From Candidatus Peregrinibacteria bacterium GW2011_GWC2_39_14 (GTDB lineage Bacteria > Patescibacteriota > Gracilibacteria > UBA1369 > UBA12463), in the NCBI GenBank assembly GCA_000993595.1, contig LBWJ01000008.1, positions 10,514 through 74,513 on the forward strand: a stretch of DNA of 64,000 bases. Direction: 5' to 3'. The notes beneath the pieces were generated by a model, which was not told the DNA's origin, searched no databases, and was given only the letters and a program-made list of their open reading frames with translations. Shown one piece after another: positions 54,534-60,851 of the stretch (position 1 is its first letter; every line of letters starts with the position of its first letter). A program made the position numbers and the translations under genes.

Positions 54534-56333
54534 ATGGCGCCAGGATCATCATTGCCAAAAGGACCGGGTAGTTCTGCTGAAAGCGTAACACCGGGAAGTG
54601 AAACTCAAGAGGTATCACAGCTTTCGCAAGAACAAAAAGAGCAGATGGAAAAAGAAAAAAGTCGCAAAGAACGATTGCGTTTGAGCGTGGAAATGGAAGT
54701 TGACCGTCTTCAGAAAGAAATAATTGATAAGCCCGAAGGCGATAAATTGCATTATAAAGAAATAGCGGAGATAAGAAATACAGGCGCGATGCCCGGATAT
54801 AAATGGTTTGATTTTTCAAATGGTGCAGAGATTCCAAATGAAAAAATCGTTGATTGGTTAATGGAAAAAGAAATTGTCGTTTCAAGCGAACACGACGAAA
54901 ATATTAAGAAGTTTACAGAAAGCGTTTCAAAACAAAAAGATGAAGATAAAGCGAAAACAATAGAAGAATATGCAGATGATTCGAAGACTTCAATATTCGA
55001 TATCCAATCCAATCAGCAATATGAAAAAATGTCTGGCGCGTTTACGAAAGGTGAATTTGTTAAAGGTAAAGCTTTGGAAATTGATTTGAAAGGAAACGCA
55101 AAGTTCGAGCTTTACATTGGGCTTGGACATATATTGCCACCTTCAGTCCAAAAGGTGAAAGTTATAGACAATAAGGGCGCAGTAAGAATTGGCTCAAGGG
55201 ATATAAGAGATAAGGTTGGTTATTTTGATGATCAAGGCTACATTCCGGTTTTTAGCGGGTATAAAGTTGAGATTATTGAGACAATAAGCGAGGAAGGAGA
55301 TTTATATAAAGAGCTTCTTAAAAAAGAATCGGATTTTTATAAAGGTCAAAAGGAAATTGCGCAAAACGCAGCATGGAAAGAAGAAACAATCGATCAGATG
55401 CTCAAAGAAGGTAAGGATGAAAATAGCGAATATGTTGCAGATTTCAAAAATATAGAAAAAATTCTTTTAGCCAAAAGGATTAGAATCAACGCTCAGGCTT
55501 TGATGACGGATGCGCAAATTTTGCGCTCATTGAAGGGAAAAGGTTCGGAAAAGCTTGGAGACTGGGATTCGGAAAAAAACGAGATTAAGGATCCGGAAAA
55601 CAAAACATTAAAACTTCTTGAAAGACTTAGCCAAGGCGGATCATTCGGACAATTTGTATTGCTTCAGGGATACGAATTCAAGCTTGGCGACCTGGATAGA
55701 ATTGAGAAATACGCTAATGACGAGCAGTTGATGCTAAAAGATTTTGAAAAAGCATTTGCTAAAAAAGGTGGCTTGCCTATGAGTTTTGAAGAGGTGACGA
55801 AAGAGCTCGTTCTCGGAGAGGGTGCGATGAATTTGAATGAAGTTAGAAATCACCCTCAATTTAGAAGAAGAATGGCTGAAAATGGGATGCCTTTTGTGAC
55901 TCCGGATGATTATATAAACATGTTTAGAAATCGCCCAGGGGTATCACCAAGTCAAATGATGATTAATCCAAACATTTATAGAGATGGAAAAATTCTCGGC
56001 GATCTCATGTGTGCAAGATACGTTTCGGACGTGCTTGGAATTAAGCCCCCGGATTATTCAGCACCATCTTTATTCACAAGGGTTGTAAAAGGAGGTGGAA
56101 AAATTATCCCGGAATCTAAAAACTTAAAGAAAGGAGATTTGATCTTTTTCAGGGGTACATACGGGGACAAGTGGAATACGATAAGCCACGTTGGCTATAT
56201 AATTGACGCCGGAGAAGGGTATGTAACAATGCGACACAATGGTGGACCGGTGAATGGAGTTCAAACAAAAACTATAAGGCTGAACGATCCATCTTCAAAA
56301 AAATTCTACGCAGGGGTGCGCATAGCGAGCTAA
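54534..56333 (+). CDS. large charged protein with C-terminal NlpC/P60-like domain
   Basis: MCARYVSDVL (Cys), GDLIFF, SHVG (His), MRH; no N-terminal signal peptide. Confidence 0.75.
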   Translation: MAPGSSLPKGPGSSAESVTPGSETQEVSQLSQEQKEQMEKEKSRKERLRLSVEMEVDRLQKEIIDKPEGDKLHYKEIAEIRNTGAMPGYKWFDFSNGAEIPNEKIVDWLMEKEIVVSSEHDENIKKFTESVSKQKDEDKAKTIEEYADDSKTSIFDIQSNQQYEKMSGAFTKGEFVKGKALEIDLKGNAKFELYIGLGHILPPSVQKVKVIDNKGAVRIGSRDIRDKVGYFDDQGYIPVFSGYKVEIIETISEEGDLYKELLKKESDFYKGQKEIAQNAAWKEETIDQMLKEGKDENSEYVADFKNIEKILLAKRIRINAQALMTDAQILRSLKGKGSEKLGDWDSEKNEIKDPENKTLKLLERLSQGGSFGQFVLLQGYEFKLGDLDRIEKYANDEQLMLKDFEKAFAKKGGLPMSFEEVTKELVLGEGAMNLNEVRNHPQFRRRMAENGMPFVTPDDYINMFRNRPGVSPSQMMINPNIYRDGKILGDLMCARYVSDVLGIKPPDYSAPSLFTRVVKGGGKIIPESKNLKKGDLIFFRGTYGDKWNTISHVGYIIDAGEGYVTMRHNGGPVNGVQTKTIRLNDPSSKKFYAGVRIAS

Positions 56334-56442
56334 AACTGCGAGTTTCGTTTTTAAGATTTCTAATTTGTTTCGTTTTTCGATTTTCGAATTCCGAAACAGT
56401 GGTGGGCCCGTCCCGACTTGAACGGGAGACCTACCGGTTATG

Positions 56443-57102
56443 CTTATCACTACAACTTTCGTTGCCCCTTTCGGGTTTGTAATCTGGACTATACCTTGTC
56501 GCCAGACCGTTCCGCAAAGCGGAACACAGGTCTATATAAATAAAGGCGACCCTGCCGTCTAGTCTCTACACCTTATCGCCGCGCCGTTAGACGAGCGATC
56601 TTGGCTCGGGATTGCCATTTTTGCTCGAAAGCAATTTTTAGGTTTCCCCGAATTTGACAGGTTATCATTTGAGAATTACTTCTCAAACAGCCCTTGGCTA
56701 TGAATTATGTCGAGCGTATAATATGGTTATGACATTAAAGTCTAACTGTATCATATGTGGTATCAAACTGCATGGTAGGCAAAAAATGTTTTGCTCTATC
56801 GGCTGTAAGAACAAATACCATCAATGTTACGAATCTCAGAAGCGTAGGGGATTTTCAAGAAAATTAAAATTAGTAAGCGATGCAGGAGGCTGTTGTTCGG
56901 CTTGCGGTTATAATAAAAACCTAGCAGCTTTAGTTTTTCATCATGTAGATTCTAAAAAGAAAAAATTCAAGCTTGATACAAGATCTTTATCTAATCGCAC
57001 GCTTTCATCAGTATTAGCCGAAGCGAATAAATGCATTTTGTTGTGTCAAAATTGCCACGCGGAAATTCATAATCCTCACGTCGATTTAAATCCATTGCCT
57101 TA
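56443..57102 (-). ncRNA. group I self-splicing intron (IC3-like), 660 nt
   Basis: Follows exon U33 and ends in G. Core motifs P AAATTCGGGGAA, Q AATCCCGAGC, R GTAGAGACTAGA, S AAGGTATAGTCC. P7 GACTA/TAGTC; IGS GGCTG pairs with exon CGGCU. Confidence 0.9.
56694..56722 (+). promoter_or_regulatory. intron-internal antisense promoter for the HNH ORF
   Basis: TTGGCT-17 nt-TATAAT; in-frame ATG 6 nt downstream (56729). Confidence 0.6.
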
Positions 57103-57103
57103 A
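56729..57103 (+). CDS. HNH endonuclease with N-terminal Zn-finger (putative homing endonuclease)
   Basis: CIICG..FCSIGC; CSACGY..L.FHH.D..K.F; KCILLCQNCHAEIH. Confidence 0.85.
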   Translation: MTLKSNCIICGIKLHGRQKMFCSIGCKNKYHQCYESQKRRGFSRKLKLVSDAGGCCSACGYNKNLAALVFHHVDSKKKKFKLDTRSLSNRTLSSVLAEANKCILLCQNCHAEIHNPHVDLNPLP

Positions 57104-57180
57104 GCCGGCTGCTCTAACCAACTGAGCTACGGGCCCAAGAAATCTTTTTAATGAACAATGCTATATCATTCTATATATGA

Positions 57181-57230
57181 AATTATCAATAATCAATAAT
57201 CAAACGATTTTCAATTATCAATTTTCAATT
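57181..57230 (+). repeat. degenerate heptamer repeat
   Basis: aattatc aataatc aataatc aaacgat tttc aattatc aattttc aatt. Confidence 0.65.
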
Positions 57231-57773: not shown

Positions 57774-60700
57774 ATGAAATCCCAAACAAATCTCATGTCC
57801 AAAGCATCTGCATTACTGATCGGAGCAGTGATGTTCTTGATGTCTGTAGCTCCAGCAGGAGCCTACACATTGGACACAACAGTCGTCCCTTCAAGGACAG
57901 CACTGTTGCCTGCTTATAACGCAACGGCCCCTGTTGTTTCAGGTGTCAGCGCATCTCCATCAACAATTAATCAAGGACAGCAAGCAACGATTACATTCAC
58001 GCTTGATAAAGCCGCGAATCTTGATTTGACTATTTTGGATATAAGAGGAGGTTTGGTTAAAACGATTATTGCAGATGGCCAAGTTCAAGCTGCTACACAT
58101 CAATATTATTGGTCCGGCAGAAATGATGCAGGAAATTATGTTGCCGCAGGTTCATATAGAGCCAGAGTTATGGTTTCAAACACATATGGTTCATCTTATA
58201 GAGATGCAGCAATCACAGTTGGATCTCCTTCAGTGCTTGCAGCTCCAATTGTTACAAGAATGACAGCGACTCCTTCAACTATCAATCCACAAAATAATGA
58301 AATTTCAAATATTTCATTTTATTTGGACAAGCAAGCAACTGTTGATTTAACGGTTACTTCTAATGGTGGAAGCGGCGTAGTCGTTAATACAATCTTTAGA
58401 GGCGCAAATCTTGGCGCAGGTTTATATACCTATTATTGGTCAGGCAAAGACGGCAATAGCCAAACCGTTGCTGCAGGACAATATCTTGCGAAAGTTTCAG
58501 CTACAAATACAGCTGGAACAGCCTTTGGCACAGCCTTAATCACGGTTGCATATGGCAGCGCTGGTACAAAGCTTGCACTCAGCAATGTTTATGCATCTCC
58601 TGTTACTTTTGATCCTAAAGCAGGTGCAGTAACAAACGTTTACTTTACAGCAAATCAATCTGCGTATATCACAGTTTCAGTTATGCAAGGCACGACTCTT
58701 GTTAAAAGATTGACATCGTCAGCGTTTTTGAAACAAGGAAATATTGCTTGGGATGGTAAAAATACAAGCGGCGCAGTTGTCGCAGAAGGTTTATATACAT
58801 ATGTTGTATATGCAACAGTCAACGGACAAGAGGCTCAAGCAGCCGGAAATGTTACGGTTGATTATGCAAATGTTGTTAACTCATTATCAATTACAAGCCA
58901 TTCCGCGGTTCCATCAACATTTGATCCTCAGGCAGGCGGCACAACGTCAATCCGTTATGCAACAAGTCAATCCGCTTATACTTCAGTAACGATCATGCAA
59001 GGCGGCGATGTTATTGTTAAAAGACTTTCAACTTCTGTTTATGGCCAATCAGGTTCAATTACATGGGATGGTAGAAATACAAGTGGAACGGTCGTTCAGG
59101 AAGGTACATATTCATACGTCGTTTATTCAACAGTCAACGGACAAGAAGCTAGAGCGGTTGGAAGCGTTACGGTTGATTATGGAACAGTCGTTGTCAGCAA
59201 CTTGAGAGTCACAAGCCACAACGCATATCCTTCAACGTTCAATCCTAATACACAATCAACAACGATTTCGTATACATTGAATAAGCAGGCAAGCGTTAAC
59301 GTTAGAATCAGAGACAACAACGCGGCATTGGTTAAAACAATCTTCACAGGTGACGCGACAAGCGGAAGCGCAATCTGGGACGGTAGAGATCAATGGGGTA
59401 GTGTTGTTGCAAACAATTCATATAAATATGAAATTTACGCATTCGTCGGAAGCGAAACAGTCACAGCTTATGGTTATGTTTATGTGAACAACAATGGCAA
59501 TGGAAACGGTGGAGATACAGGAACAGCTCCTTCAATCACAAGCGCATCTGTTAATCCTTCAACATTCAATCCAAATACACAGACAACGCAACTTCAATAC
59601 ACACTTGCAAATGCAAGCGCGAATATCACAATCCAAGTTTTGGATAGATACAACACAAATAGATACATGGTTACTCTTGCTGATACAGTTTATAGATCAG
59701 CGGGTACGTATTATGTCACATGGAACGGACGCGATTCTTCAAGCACAGTTGTCCCGGAAGGCACATATACATTCCAAATCACAGCTGCAAATTCATATGG
59801 AAATGACATGAGAAATGTCAATGTTACAGTCGATTACGATAACAATGGCAACGGCGACACAACGTGTACGGACTCTTATTATTGCCCAACGTATAACACA
59901 AGACCATATATCTTCAATGATTATGCGACACCAAATCCATTTAGAGTTGGATACAACAGCCCTGTCATTAACTTTACGCTTAACACAGGCGCAAGAATTA
60001 CAGTCATTATCATGAAAGATACGGCAACGATCAGAACAATCACGAACAACGAATTCAAAAATGGTGGAGTGAACTATGTTACATGGAATGGTCTCGACTA
60101 TAGCGGAAACTACGTTTCAGTCGGAACATACACATATAAGATTTACGCAGAAAACGGATATGGCTCAGATGTTAAAACGGATTATATCTATGCAACATCA
60201 AAAGTCGGAGAAACAATGCCTTGTGGCGGATTCAACGATATTAGCATATCAAGCCCATATTGCCGCGCAGTTCTTCAGATGGTCAAGCTTGGAATCTTCG
60301 AAGGTTACAGCAATGGCACATTCGGAGCAACAACACCAATCAATAGAGCTGAAACAATGAAAGTTATCTTGAAAGCTCTTAACAAGCCAATCCAAGTTAC
60401 GAATGGCACAAACATCGGTTTCTGGGATCTTAATCCAGGCGAGTGGTATATGAATTATCTCTATACTGCAAAATTGATGGGCATCATCAACGGTTATCCG
60501 GATGGAAGCTTCAAACCTGCAGACACAGTAAATAGAGTTGAACTTCTTAAGATGTTCTTCAGAACAGCAGGTTCAAGCTTACCAGCTTGCCAATATGCTC
60601 CTTATGAAGATACGCCGGTTACATATGATACAGCTTGGTACTTACCTTATGTTTGCTACTCAAGAAAATTCACATTGGTTGATGGTATTGGAAGCTATTT

Positions 60701-60851
60701 CCACCCGGACAAGCCAATGAAAAGAGGTGACGTCGCATCATTGTTCTACAGATATCAAGTTCAAGGTCTGTTCAATGGTGTAACAAATCCACCAACGTAT
60801 TCACCGGATTATCAGTATCTCGTTCCGGGGTATACAACACCGGCATACTAA
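57774..60851 (+). CDS. S-layer-associated protein with ~7 FlgD-Ig-like repeats and C-terminal SLH domains
   Basis: Signal peptide; repeated P.TF.P..W.G[RK][ND]..G..V..G.Y units; GY.DG.FKP, NRAE and NRVE SLH motifs. Confidence 0.85.
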   Translation: MKSQTNLMSKASALLIGAVMFLMSVAPAGAYTLDTTVVPSRTALLPAYNATAPVVSGVSASPSTINQGQQATITFTLDKAANLDLTILDIRGGLVKTIIADGQVQAATHQYYWSGRNDAGNYVAAGSYRARVMVSNTYGSSYRDAAITVGSPSVLAAPIVTRMTATPSTINPQNNEISNISFYLDKQATVDLTVTSNGGSGVVVNTIFRGANLGAGLYTYYWSGKDGNSQTVAAGQYLAKVSATNTAGTAFGTALITVAYGSAGTKLALSNVYASPVTFDPKAGAVTNVYFTANQSAYITVSVMQGTTLVKRLTSSAFLKQGNIAWDGKNTSGAVVAEGLYTYVVYATVNGQEAQAAGNVTVDYANVVNSLSITSHSAVPSTFDPQAGGTTSIRYATSQSAYTSVTIMQGGDVIVKRLSTSVYGQSGSITWDGRNTSGTVVQEGTYSYVVYSTVNGQEARAVGSVTVDYGTVVVSNLRVTSHNAYPSTFNPNTQSTTISYTLNKQASVNVRIRDNNAALVKTIFTGDATSGSAIWDGRDQWGSVVANNSYKYEIYAFVGSETVTAYGYVYVNNNGNGNGGDTGTAPSITSASVNPSTFNPNTQTTQLQYTLANASANITIQVLDRYNTNRYMVTLADTVYRSAGTYYVTWNGRDSSSTVVPEGTYTFQITAANSYGNDMRNVNVTVDYDNNGNGDTTCTDSYYCPTYNTRPYIFNDYATPNPFRVGYNSPVINFTLNTGARITVIIMKDTATIRTITNNEFKNGGVNYVTWNGLDYSGNYVSVGTYTYKIYAENGYGSDVKTDYIYATSKVGETMPCGGFNDISISSPYCRAVLQMVKLGIFEGYSNGTFGATTPINRAETMKVILKALNKPIQVTNGTNIGFWDLNPGEWYMNYLYTAKLMGIINGYPDGSFKPADTVNRVELLKMFFRTAGSSLPACQYAPYEDTPVTYDTAWYLPYVCYSRKFTLVDGIGSYFHPDKPMKRGDVASLFYRYQVQGLFNGVTNPPTYSPDYQYLVPGYTTPAY

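Follow-up and report, generated by a model that had tools for sequence, protein, structure and literature searches.

The only tRNA-Ile2(CAU) gene found in this genome is very probably split between U33 and C34 by a mobile group I intron of the IC3 type that carries an antisense HNH homing-endonuclease gene. The locus lies in the window, by which we mean the whole stretch of 64,000 nt that was analysed, and its features are collected in Table 1. The evidence comes from the two exons and their boundaries, a conserved and covarying fold, the marks of Ile2 in the tRNA body, an intact and conserved HNH gene and the mixture of alleles among relatives. The intron is a genuine mobile element and belongs to a known kind, with a layout that is common in nature and barely described.

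Table 1. Features of the split tRNA-Ile2 locus, in window coordinates
Feature	Coordinates	Strand	Description
tRNA-Ile2(CAU) exon 1	57103..57136	-	34 nt; acceptor 5' strand, D arm, anticodon-stem 5' strand, C32, U33
tRNA-Ile2 exon 2	56400..56442	-	C34-A35-U36, A37, A38, anticodon-stem 3' strand, variable loop, T arm, acceptor 3' strand, A73
Group I intron	56443..57102	-	660 nt, IC3-like; from 5' UAAGGC (first intron U) to omega-G 56443
Promoter-like site upstream of the tRNA gene	57168..57196	-	Consensus scan 9/12; weak match, a pointer only
Terminator-like hairpin and T run	56306..56325	-	75 nt beyond the tRNA 3' end; consensus scan
P1 5' strand	57102..57107	-	Exon C29-G30-G31-C32-U33 and first intron U; pairs with 56693-56688
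Internal guide sequence GGGCUG (P1 3' strand)	56688..56693	-	Just 5' of P2
P1 extension 3' strand	56696..56702	-	Pairs with 57093-57099; from sequence and pairing table
P2 hairpin	56668..56687	-	GUAA loop; compensatory changes in 6/9 pairs
P3 5' strand	56656..56661	-	Pairs with 56551-56556; 2/6 pairs compensatory, 100% of cells paired
P4	56605..56652	-	56652-56646 with 56611-56605, encloses P5/P5a; P and Q elements of the original prediction
P6 hairpin	56575..56599	-	4/4 pairs compensatory
P7 5' strand (56564-56560), then P3 3' strand (56556-56551)	56551..56564	-	R element; invariant in 11/11
P8	56498..56550	-	56550-56545 with 56503-56498; 6/6 pairs compensatory
J8/7 and P7 3' strand (UAGUC 56491-56487)	56487..56497	-	S element; invariant but for one position
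P9 and second 3' hairpin (GAAA loop each)	56452..56475	-	Before the omega-G tail; 1/3 and 4/5 pairs compensatory
HNH endonuclease gene	56729..57103	+	Antisense to the intron; 124 aa from ATG 56729; alternative in-frame ATG 56723
HNH promoter-like site	56694..56722	+	TTGGCT, 17 nt, TATAAT; consensus scan 10/12; putative

Exons and boundaries of the split gene

The original prediction described two tRNA halves, 660 nt apart, that rejoin into a cloverleaf with the junction inside the anticodon loop. When the exons were joined by script, we obtained a 77-nt cloverleaf that ARAGORN called as tRNA(cat) with the loop CUCAUAA and the junction CU/CAUAA, in full agreement with that description. Exon 1 was delimited from the sequence, from the ARAGORN cloverleaf of the joined exons and from its contiguity with exon 2 in intronless orthologues, while exon 2 begins with CAUAA and finishes with an encoded CCA (56402-56400).

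The insertion point after U33, also proposed at the outset, was borne out by several lines of evidence. Nine fetched relatives had an intronless tRNA-Ile2 gene, contiguous exactly at the U33/C34 junction, which supports the boundaries at the DNA level. The interval 56443-57102 was skipped precisely in two metagenome runs, by one DNA contig in each; among the DNA contigs of four runs, nothing was seen beyond intronless relatives and variable P8 loops. We also observed that the intron boundaries were identical in all 11 complete orthologues, each with U-1 and omega-G.

Standard tRNA scans had been expected to miss the gene, and they did: ARAGORN at default settings found no tRNA at the split locus, and the Rfam tRNA model RF00005 gave no match there. 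With introns allowed, ARAGORN misplaced the intron by 3 nt and called a tRNA-Leu(taa), while the orthologues were called Leu, Ser or Met. Such placements violate the U-1/omega-G rule and put a Leu anticodon on a tRNA with a short variable arm. A register shifted one nucleotide later, which would give the anticodon UAU, was rejected, as it makes C the last nucleotide of the intron.

Fold of the intron RNA

A covariance search with a group I intron model, suggested along with the original prediction as a check, returned a match to Rfam RF00028 at 56712-56462 on the reverse strand. The match spanned the full model (1-253) and scored 58.4 bits (E 3e-12), the gathering score being 50; the same match was returned by the search of the organism's own genome. 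The margin of only 8 bits reflects the fact that the model omits the long P1 loop and the P8 insert. The subgroup label IC3 was taken over from Williams 2020 rather than computed.

In the guide pairing (CGGCU^U / GGGCUG), U33 at 57103 lies opposite G56692 in a U.G wobble, and the wobble was found in 11 out of 11 orthologues. Within the guide sequence GGGC was invariant in the alignment of the 11 introns (alignment A1), and the full GGGCUG occurred in nine of them; GGGCAG and GGGCAA were the variants. The guide was mismatched to the exon at one or two positions in 2/11 orthologues. For all seven ORF-less introns the minimum-energy fold of the P1 segment closed with the exon-guide pairing. These orthologues fold the segment as a single long P1 hairpin, and here the HNH gene forms the terminal loop of an extended P1.

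The rest of the fold was assessed by drawing the canonical P2-P9 on alignment A1 (11 sequences), with P7 as a pseudoknot. We found that 98.6% of the 517 cells pair, compared to 35-46% with the partners slid, and that 25 of the 47 pairs show compensatory changes, compared to 3-6 when slid. P4 was 100% paired, with one compensatory change, and P5 had one as well. Among 500 shuffled controls, none reached the observed value in four of the five measures, and 26 did so in the fifth (further pair types). P7 gives no covariation evidence either way because it is invariant. Two helices proposed by RNAalifold, one between the guide sequence and the P7 3' strand, the other a small hairpin in the P7 region, were replaced by the canonical P7. 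In this way the terminal G, guide sequence and P/Q/R/S core described at first reading were recovered as omega-G 56443, GGGCUG and a fold supported by the alignment.

A 20-nt core motif from the P7/P3 region recurred without mismatch in at least 120 stretches from the collection of genomes. Among the 80 of these stretches that were fetched, ARAGORN called 76 intron-split tRNAs, of which 40 were Leu(UAA) at position 3.

The P8 loop contains an inserted hairpin repeat (about 56503-56544), copies of which occur elsewhere in the genome, and the P8 loops of relatives hold other short hairpins. The insert could disturb folding. It would suit the view of a relic intron that can no longer splice, inside a pseudogene, with the real Ile2 gene in an unassembled part of the genome; that the assembly is in 21 contigs and several expected tRNAs were not found points the same way. 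Still, we consider this very unlikely. P3, P4, P7 and J8/7 vary little or not at all, and covariation of the helices extends over 11 genomes from nine families, unlike what decay would leave. Neither exon is damaged and the two together fold into a clean cloverleaf, a near-identical copy in genome G002 and ten further complete orthologues retain U-1, omega-G and the guide sequence, and the completeness estimate is 100%.

From the sequence we infer an active intron, with lysidine formed after splicing and the intronless gene as the target of the HNH protein. After transcription, the guide GGGCUG would pair with the anticodon-stem 5' strand CGGCU to form P1 with the U33.G wobble, and free guanosine would cleave after U33. 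G 56443 would then enter the G-binding site in P7, leading to exon ligation. The anticodon stem-loop would form only after splicing, whereupon TilS would convert C34 to lysidine and the tRNA would read AUA.

Identity of the spliced tRNA

The acceptor stem (GGGCCCG / CGGGCCC) has G3-C70, C4-G69 and C5-G68, and the anticodon stem has G27.U43. All four are named as Ile2/TilS marks in the excerpts of PMC1635315 and PMC2500205 that we used, where C4-G69 and C5-G68 appear as determinants of the E. coli TilS. The excerpt of PMC1635315 further states that G3-C70 excludes Met and fMet, and gives the C1/A72 mismatch and A11-U24 as initiator criteria. The host tRNA has a paired G1-C72 and the D stem GCUC/GAGC, and with neither the C1/A72 mismatch nor A11-U24 its body is that of an elongator. 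The Ile2 call was made on discriminator positions from papers on other bacteria and by elimination.

For the elimination we used the other tRNAs of the genome, which comprises 1.32 Mb in 21 contigs. ARAGORN found two further CAU tRNAs, an initiator and an elongator Met (C6:83557-83729). The initiator has the C1/A72 mismatch and A11-T24, while the elongator has C3-G70, A4 and G5 and shares G27.U43. No other Ile2 was found in the genome by the tRNA scans, and no tRNA-Ile(UAU) by ARAGORN at default settings. The genome encodes TilS (TIGR02432, 208 bits against a cut-off of 93.6, no internal stop), and ATA makes up 24.9% of its Ile codons, or 19.5 per 1000 codons, as counted in 529 long ORFs. When an intronless orthologue was compared with E. 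coli, the top eight listed matches were all annotated as tRNA-Ile; the best was full length, 84% identical and had a CAU anticodon.

The spliced tRNA might instead be an elongator tRNA-Met, the intron having hit a redundant Met gene and AUA being read in some other way. ARAGORN does label every CAU tRNA as Met, and G27.U43, common to the other elongator-type CAU tRNA, is alone non-discriminating. The reported exclusion of Met and fMet by G3-C70, the TilS determinants C4-G69 and C5-G68, and the C3-G70, A4 and G5 of the other elongator all speak against a Met tRNA, as do the missing UAU-anticodon tRNA at default settings, the tRNA-Ile annotation of the best E. coli look-alikes and a TilS that would otherwise have no substrate. 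We rate this alternative as extremely unlikely, and the sequence features support Ile2 rather than elongator Met. The lysidine-type isotype of the original prediction is upheld by the acceptor-stem pairs, the separate initiator and elongator Met tRNAs, TilS and the E. coli matches, and we infer, as it did, that AUA decoding depends on splicing.

The tRNA inventory of the genome is not fully understood, because tRNA-Tyr, Pro(UGG) and Ser(GCU) were also absent from the default scans, and another Ile2 or Ile(UAU) gene may have escaped them as well. A relaxed ARAGORN run aimed at these three returned well over a hundred implausible intron calls.

The antisense HNH gene, intron mobility and known relatives

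An intact gene for a 124-aa HNH endonuclease, seen in the ORF list, takes up about 375 nt of the intron in antisense; the original prediction had overlooked it. The stop codon TAA (57101-57103) overlaps the 5' splice site. The protein matched phrog_2255 and phrog_3106, both labelled 'HNH endonuclease' (E 6e-18); matches to Pfam HNH and AI2M-like_HNH fell below the cut-off (E 0.003-0.007), and the NCBIfam profiles gave nothing for this protein. An intact ORF with the Cys/His motifs kept was found in four genomes (G000, G002, G027, G028) and in a Bdellovibrionales MAG, the homologues differing at about half of their residues as judged by eye and not from computed identities. A 100% identical protein is encoded in a MAG labelled Candidatus Gracilibacteria (CPR/Patescibacteria).

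The -10 element of the putative HNH promoter ends 6 nt before ATG 56729, and its -35 element falls on the complement of the guide-sequence region. In all four ORF-bearing introns examined, a -10-like hexamer stood 6-7 nt before the ATG, and the ATG lay exactly 41 nt past the complement of the guide sequence. This arrangement suggests that the gene, set in the extended P1 loop, is probably transcribed from a promoter of its own as a leaderless mRNA. The encoded protein would most likely cut intronless tRNA-Ile2 genes, and repair would then copy the intron in (homing).

With respect to distribution, an intron at this tRNA-Ile2 site was present in at least 12 of the 41 genomes of the order. Among the 11 introns that are complete, an intact antisense HNH gene was present in four, a remnant in one and neither in six; the 11 aligned introns span nine families (labels from the tool). 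We also found Ile2 introns after U33 in Chloroflexota and Bdellovibrionales MAGs. In the Bdellovibrionales MAG the same intron harbours an antisense HNH of about 60% identity, and in a quick tree this intron nests inside the CPR clade. An fMet-type position in a tRNA-Ile2 had been called unusual; it does fall outside the four classical classes, but with its occurrence in relatives and in other phyla it is not rare.

It is rather unlikely, in our estimate, that the antisense ORF is something other than an active homing endonuclease for this site, such as a passenger in decay or a nuclease that serves another function, e.g., a free-standing nuclease targeting tRNA genes that landed in the P1 loop. 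Such an origin would be in line with a homologue in a Thermoleophilaceae MAG that stands alone beside a tRNA-Asn gene, and decay with the ORF split over two frames at the related locus L100, with the mere remnant in G022 and with the Pfam scores under the cut-off; moreover, an intact HNH gene is missing from seven of the 11 complete introns at the orthologous site, six of which are without any trace. Against this stand the intact ORFs with conserved Cys/His motifs in the four genomes and the Bdellovibrionales MAG, the PHROG family matches, and the constant spacing from start codon to ribozyme together with the conserved -10-like box. Furthermore, ORF-bearing, ORF-less and empty sites occur together, as a homing cycle predicts. 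We therefore retain the homing endonuclease as the preferred reading of the HNH gene.

Williams 2020 (bioRxiv 10.1101/2020.01.27.920355) lists 21 classes of such introns, which are frequent in metagenomic assemblies of unnamed phyla; the four classical ones (Leu.3Ug, Arg.5Ug, fMet.2Ug and Ile2.5Ug) agree with the list given in the original prediction. The intron described here is the same kind of element with the same placing rule (U-1 and omega-G within the anticodon loop), and under that naming it would be 'Ile2.2Ug'. The main text of Williams 2020 mentions neither antisense endonuclease genes nor Ile2.2Ug, the 17 new classes being given only in its Table 1 and Fig. 3. In the literature searched, which covered the running text of Williams 2020, we found neither the string 'Ile2.2Ug' nor a description of an Ile2 intron with an antisense HNH layout.

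The cyanobacterial fMet.2Ug intron has the same insertion point, U33/C34 of a CU/CAUAA loop (Williams 2020), and, according to the excerpt of PMC1995217 used, is likewise an IC3-type intron in a CAU tRNA with an endonuclease gene in some copies. Its host is an initiator, whereas the host here is Ile2 with a paired 1-72, so that only the insertion position is common to the two. The copy in Synechocystis PCC 6803 encodes I-Ssp6803I, a PD-(D/E)XK enzyme, in contrast to the HNH gene placed antisense in the P1 loop here. The Synechocystis gene runs in the sense orientation. In the quick tree the sole sampled fMet.2 intron (L101), which is without an HNH homologue, adjoined the CPR Ile2 clade; it grouped with a Chloroflexia Ile2 intron with support of 0.89, while the support of the fMet node itself was 0.44.

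The Ile2.5Ug introns of Azoarcus, Burkholderia and Acidovorax share the Ile2 host, the small IC3-type ribozyme and the property of being missed by tRNA finders (excerpt of PMC8450103; Williams 2020). They are inserted after U36, whereas the intron here follows U33, and the four sampled ones formed a separate clade (support 0.99) apart from it. These were 204-223 nt long with no ORF, compared to 660 nt with an HNH gene here.

A gene opposite to the intron strand, with expression from a promoter of its own, is also described for I-DirII of a Didymium nuclear rDNA group I intron (excerpt of PMC3073962). That setting is eukaryotic: the promoter is one for Pol II, and a spliceosomal intron and a poly(A) tail are present. 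Here, in contrast, the intron is in a bacterial tRNA gene, the -10 box is sigma-70-like and the mRNA is probably leaderless. The nuclease family of I-DirII also differs from HNH.

Taken jointly, these observations allow a broader reading that we offer tentatively and regard as somewhat doubtful: that Ile2.2Ug with a backwards HNH gene might be a distinct composite mobile element, undescribed in print, which crosses phyla (Patescibacteria, Bdellovibrionota and probably Chloroflexota) and is related to fMet.2Ug. It might derive from the fMet.2Ug intron or have a common ancestry with it, because both tRNAs offer an identical CU/CAUAA target. The HNH gene would be tightly packed in the P1 loop, its -35 element overlapping the guide sequence and its stop codon using the complement of U33, and its leaderless mRNA would converge on the tRNA promoter. 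If this is true, heavy tRNA transcription would throttle the nuclease and, conversely, the supply of the sole AUA-reading tRNA could change with HNH transcription or antisense pairing.

An antisense, probably leaderless gene fitted exactly into a P1 loop would be an unusual mode of endonuclease expression for a tRNA intron, and the empty, ORF-less, remnant and ORF-bearing alleles within one order provide a clean natural series of the homing cycle. Genomes of this group seem to be without tRNA-Ile2, and here without tRNA-Asn and tRNA-Thr(GGU) too, because tRNA finders overlook intron-split genes. Split tRNAs missed in this way can skew completeness checks and inferences of the genetic code, and ARAGORN with introns allowed even yields a false tRNA-Leu(UAA). 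For this groundwater bacterium, about 2% of all codons (AUA) would hinge on a ribozyme reaction that precedes lysidine formation.

The split tRNA gene and its group I intron

The original prediction had placed two tRNA halves 660 nt apart, with the anticodon loop CU/CAUAA divided between them. We found that the joined exons form a 77-nt cloverleaf with the 7-nt loop CUCAUAA, accepted by ARAGORN as tRNA(cat). The P/Q/R/S core, terminal G and guide sequence claimed for the intervening RNA were also recovered: the complete Rfam group I intron model RF00028 aligned to 56712-56462 of the minus strand (58.4 bits, E 3e-12; gathering score 50), the last base was G56443, a guide GGGCUG was present and the fold covaried among relatives. 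As had been expected for standard scans, neither ARAGORN with default settings nor the Rfam tRNA model reported a tRNA at the locus. With introns allowed, ARAGORN detected the gene, shifted the intron downstream by 3 nt and labeled the gene tRNA-Leu(taa); we rejected this register because its intron has no U before it and no G at its end.

Features of the window and further copies of the P8 repeat in the source genome (G000; C-numbers are its contigs)
Feature	Position	Strand	Remarks
tRNA exon 1	57136-57103	minus	last base U33
Group I intron	57102-56443	minus	660 nt, between the exons, directly after U33; terminal G56443
Guide GGGCUG	56693-56688	minus	immediately 5' of P2
tRNA exon 2	56442-56400	minus	CAU anticodon first, encoded CCA last
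HNH gene	likely start ATG 56729; stop 57101-57103	plus	124 aa; start by comparison with homologues
Promoter-like site	ends 6 nt before ATG 56729	plus	sigma-70-like, TTGGCT-17 nt-TATAAT, 10/12 consensus
1025-aa protein	57774-60851	plus	seven FlgD-Ig-like repeats, C-terminal S-layer homology domains
599-aa ORF	54534-56333	plus	just downstream of the tRNA gene, opposite strand
Other P8 repeat copies	C7:51333-51382, C7:89671, C9:76456, C11:123821-123862		

The guide forms P1 with exon bases C29-G30-G31-C32-U33 plus the first U of the intron, with a G opposite U33; group I introns are expected to have such a wobble pair at the 5' splice site. P1 extends past an A/A internal loop (57099-57093 with 56696-56702), and therefore about 390 nt lie in the terminal loop of the extended P1.

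By BLAST, at least 12 of 41 genomes from the order (the source genome and 40 relatives) carried this split gene; 11 copies were complete and one was interrupted by a contig end. Introns of the complete copies were 660, 654, 321, 273, 611, 266, 610, 319, 243, 298 and 268 nt long, and all 11 showed the exon end ...CGGCU and an intron of the form U(A/G)A...G followed by CAUAACCG. The exon-guide pairing was kept in all of them (all six pairs in nine, one or two mismatches in two), and the isolated P1 segment folded into this pairing in seven of seven ORF-less introns. Nine fetched relatives had no intron: their gene runs from exon 1 straight into exon 2 at precisely the U33/C34 junction. In groundwater metagenomes, one contig in each of two runs joined 56442 to 57103 without the 660 nt; these contigs are DNA, not RNA, and represent intronless relatives.

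The 11 orthologous introns were aligned from the guide sequence to omega-G and scored against a hand-drawn canonical fold (P2-P6, P7 as a pseudoknot, P8, P9 and a second 3' hairpin). The fold paired 98.6% of 517 cells, compared to 35-46% when partners were slid by 1-3 columns, and compensatory changes occurred in 25 of 47 pairs, compared to 3-6 when slid. For four of five measures none of 500 shuffles reached the observed values, while the fifth, further pair types, was reached by 26 of 500. P7 and J8/7 did not vary, nor did most of P3 and P4. Judging from the aligned sequences, the ribozyme core is under selection.

The P8 loop contains a hairpin repeat of about 40 nt (56503-56544, minus strand) with five occurrences in the source genome and compensatory changes in its stem. 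Congeners had many copies, including three spaced 63 nt in the relative G001 (C88:806-973), which also had nested copies in the corresponding intron P8; the repeat resembles a small hairpin element prone to insertion. Near the tRNA gene, the 1025-aa protein is likely a cell-surface protein; the 599-aa ORF had no Pfam match above cut-off and a weak ToxN-like match (E 0.006).

Identity of the tRNA and other unusual tRNA genes

Several observations identify the split gene as the tRNA-Ile2 gene, which the organism needs. The split tRNA has G3-C70, C4-G69, C5-G68 and G27.U43. Silva et al. 2006 (PMC1635315) report that a tRNA with G3/C70 cannot be Met or fMet and that tRNA-Ile(CAT) often has C4-G69 and C5-G68; Ikeuchi et al. 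2008 (PMC2500205) describe recognition of the latter two pairs by E. coli TilS and the presence of G27.U43 in tRNA-Ile2. Two further CAU tRNAs, found by default ARAGORN, lie side by side at C6:83557-83729: the first has the initiator marks (C1/A72 mismatch, A11-T24), the second has C3-G70, A4 and G5. The closest E. coli genes to a congener's intronless orthologue are annotated tRNA-Ile, the top match being full length, 84% identical and with a CAU anticodon. The genome has a TilS gene without internal stop (208 bits, cut-off 93.6), default ARAGORN found no tRNA with a UAU anticodon in it, and in 529 long ORFs 24.9% of the Ile codons are ATA (19.5 per 1000). Splicing of the tRNA would thus be required.

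U33 is nearly universal in tRNAs; the initiator tRNA (C6:83557-83632) has C33 instead, in the anticodon loop CCCAUAA.

The tRNA-Asn(GUU) gene of the source genome is also split (C11:167496-167773, plus strand; L001:1477-1754 in the fetched stretch). Its ORF-less 203-nt group I intron follows U35 (RF00028, 108.9 bits), and default tRNA scans missed the gene. The tRNA-Thr(GGU) gene (C10:35002-35265, plus strand; L033:203-466) has a 188-nt insert after U36 with a terminal G. P3-P8-like helices can be drawn by eye, and RF00028 gave no match even at E <= 1; the insert could be a group I intron of very compact or divergent form, or an element of another kind. Default ARAGORN and the Rfam model RF00005 found no tRNA-Tyr, tRNA-Pro(UGG) or tRNA-Ser(GCU) in the genome, and relaxed searches gave noise only, despite a completeness estimate of 100%. 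The genome may conceal more tRNA genes of split or unusual form.

The antisense HNH gene

An open frame spans 56654-57103 of the plus strand. PHROG families annotated as HNH endonuclease matched it at E 6e-18, and Pfam HNH models matched below cut-offs only. The stop codon straddles the splice junction, its final base complementing U33. Intact homologues occupied the equal place and orientation in three relatives, in one of which (G027; the others are G002 and G028) the frame extends four codons into exon 1. We observed a remnant in the relative G022 and no HNH gene in six orthologous introns. Four ORF-bearing introns, one of them from a Bdellovibrionales MAG, were examined; each had a -10-like hexamer 6-7 nt upstream of the ATG, and in each the distance from the ATG to the complement of the guide sequence was exactly 41 nt. 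This spacing suggests a putative promoter of the gene's own, which would yield a leaderless mRNA.

Related HNH genes in Anaerolineae MAGs (stretches L005, L007 and L008) lie in sense orientation in group I introns of tRNAs, the host being tRNA-Asn in L007 and L008, while in a Thermoleophilaceae MAG (L006) a free-standing homologue adjoins an intronless tRNA-Asn gene. Because its members sit in tRNA introns or beside tRNA-Asn, the family seems tied to tRNA genes.

Related introns and known systems

When 401 genomes sampled evenly across the phylum were searched (BLAST E <= 1e-8), six, the source genome included, gave matches spanning the intron 3' part and exon 2, a lower bound; three of the six belong to one family outside the source's class. 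In the species-genome collection, at least 120 stretches contained an exact match to a 20-nt P7/P3 core motif, and ARAGORN called 76 of 80 fetched loci intron-split tRNAs. Requiring a preceding U and a terminal G within the anticodon loop assigned 40 to Leu(UAA) after position 3, seven to CAU after 2 and four to CAU after 5; 12 had no solution and 13 were ambiguous or other. Among the seven CAU.2 genes, one had an initiator body and six an Ile2-like body (Anaerolineae, Chloroflexia, Bdellovibrionales, an Accumulibacter MAG and an unclassified MAG). Two of the Ile2-like introns carried an antisense HNH gene 54-60% identical to that of the window, one of them frameshifted.

A quick midpoint-rooted FastTree of 55 intron cores (179 columns), from a sample biased by the exact-motif search, left out 17 of 72 (anchor motif mismatch) and the near-duplicate G002. 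It grouped the CPR Ile2 introns with the Bdellovibrionales intron (support 0.86); the single fMet.2 intron joined next (0.44, weak), then a Chloroflexia Ile2.2 intron (0.89). A separate clade (0.99) held the four Ile2.5 introns.

Williams 2020 (bioRxiv 10.1101/2020.01.27.920355) listed four classical classes (Leu.3Ug, Arg.5Ug, fMet.2Ug and Ile2.5Ug, named by host tRNA and anticodon-loop position preceding the intron) and 17 further ones, and reported a high frequency of such introns in metagenome assemblies from unnamed phyla. The tRNAscan-SE 2.0 paper (PMC8450103) mentions 36 genomes in which fMet or Ile2 was missed owing to group I introns, and Lui et al. 2021 (PMC8172020) report such introns in some tRNAs of circularized genomes, 34 of 36 being CPR. 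The window's intron shares its insertion position with fMet-type introns. I-DirII of Didymium rDNA is a known antisense endonuclease gene and has its own promoter (PMC3073962). In the literature covered by our search we found no account of bacterial tRNA introns with an HNH gene in antisense, nor of an Ile2 intron after U33.

The element is a real and mobile group I intron, probably active, which interrupts the only tRNA-Ile2 gene found, sits at the fMet-type position and holds a backwards HNH gene in its P1 loop. As an element it varies a well-known kind and is not a new mechanism. The split tRNA-Ile2 matters for annotation, and the intron alleles offer a tidy example of the homing cycle.
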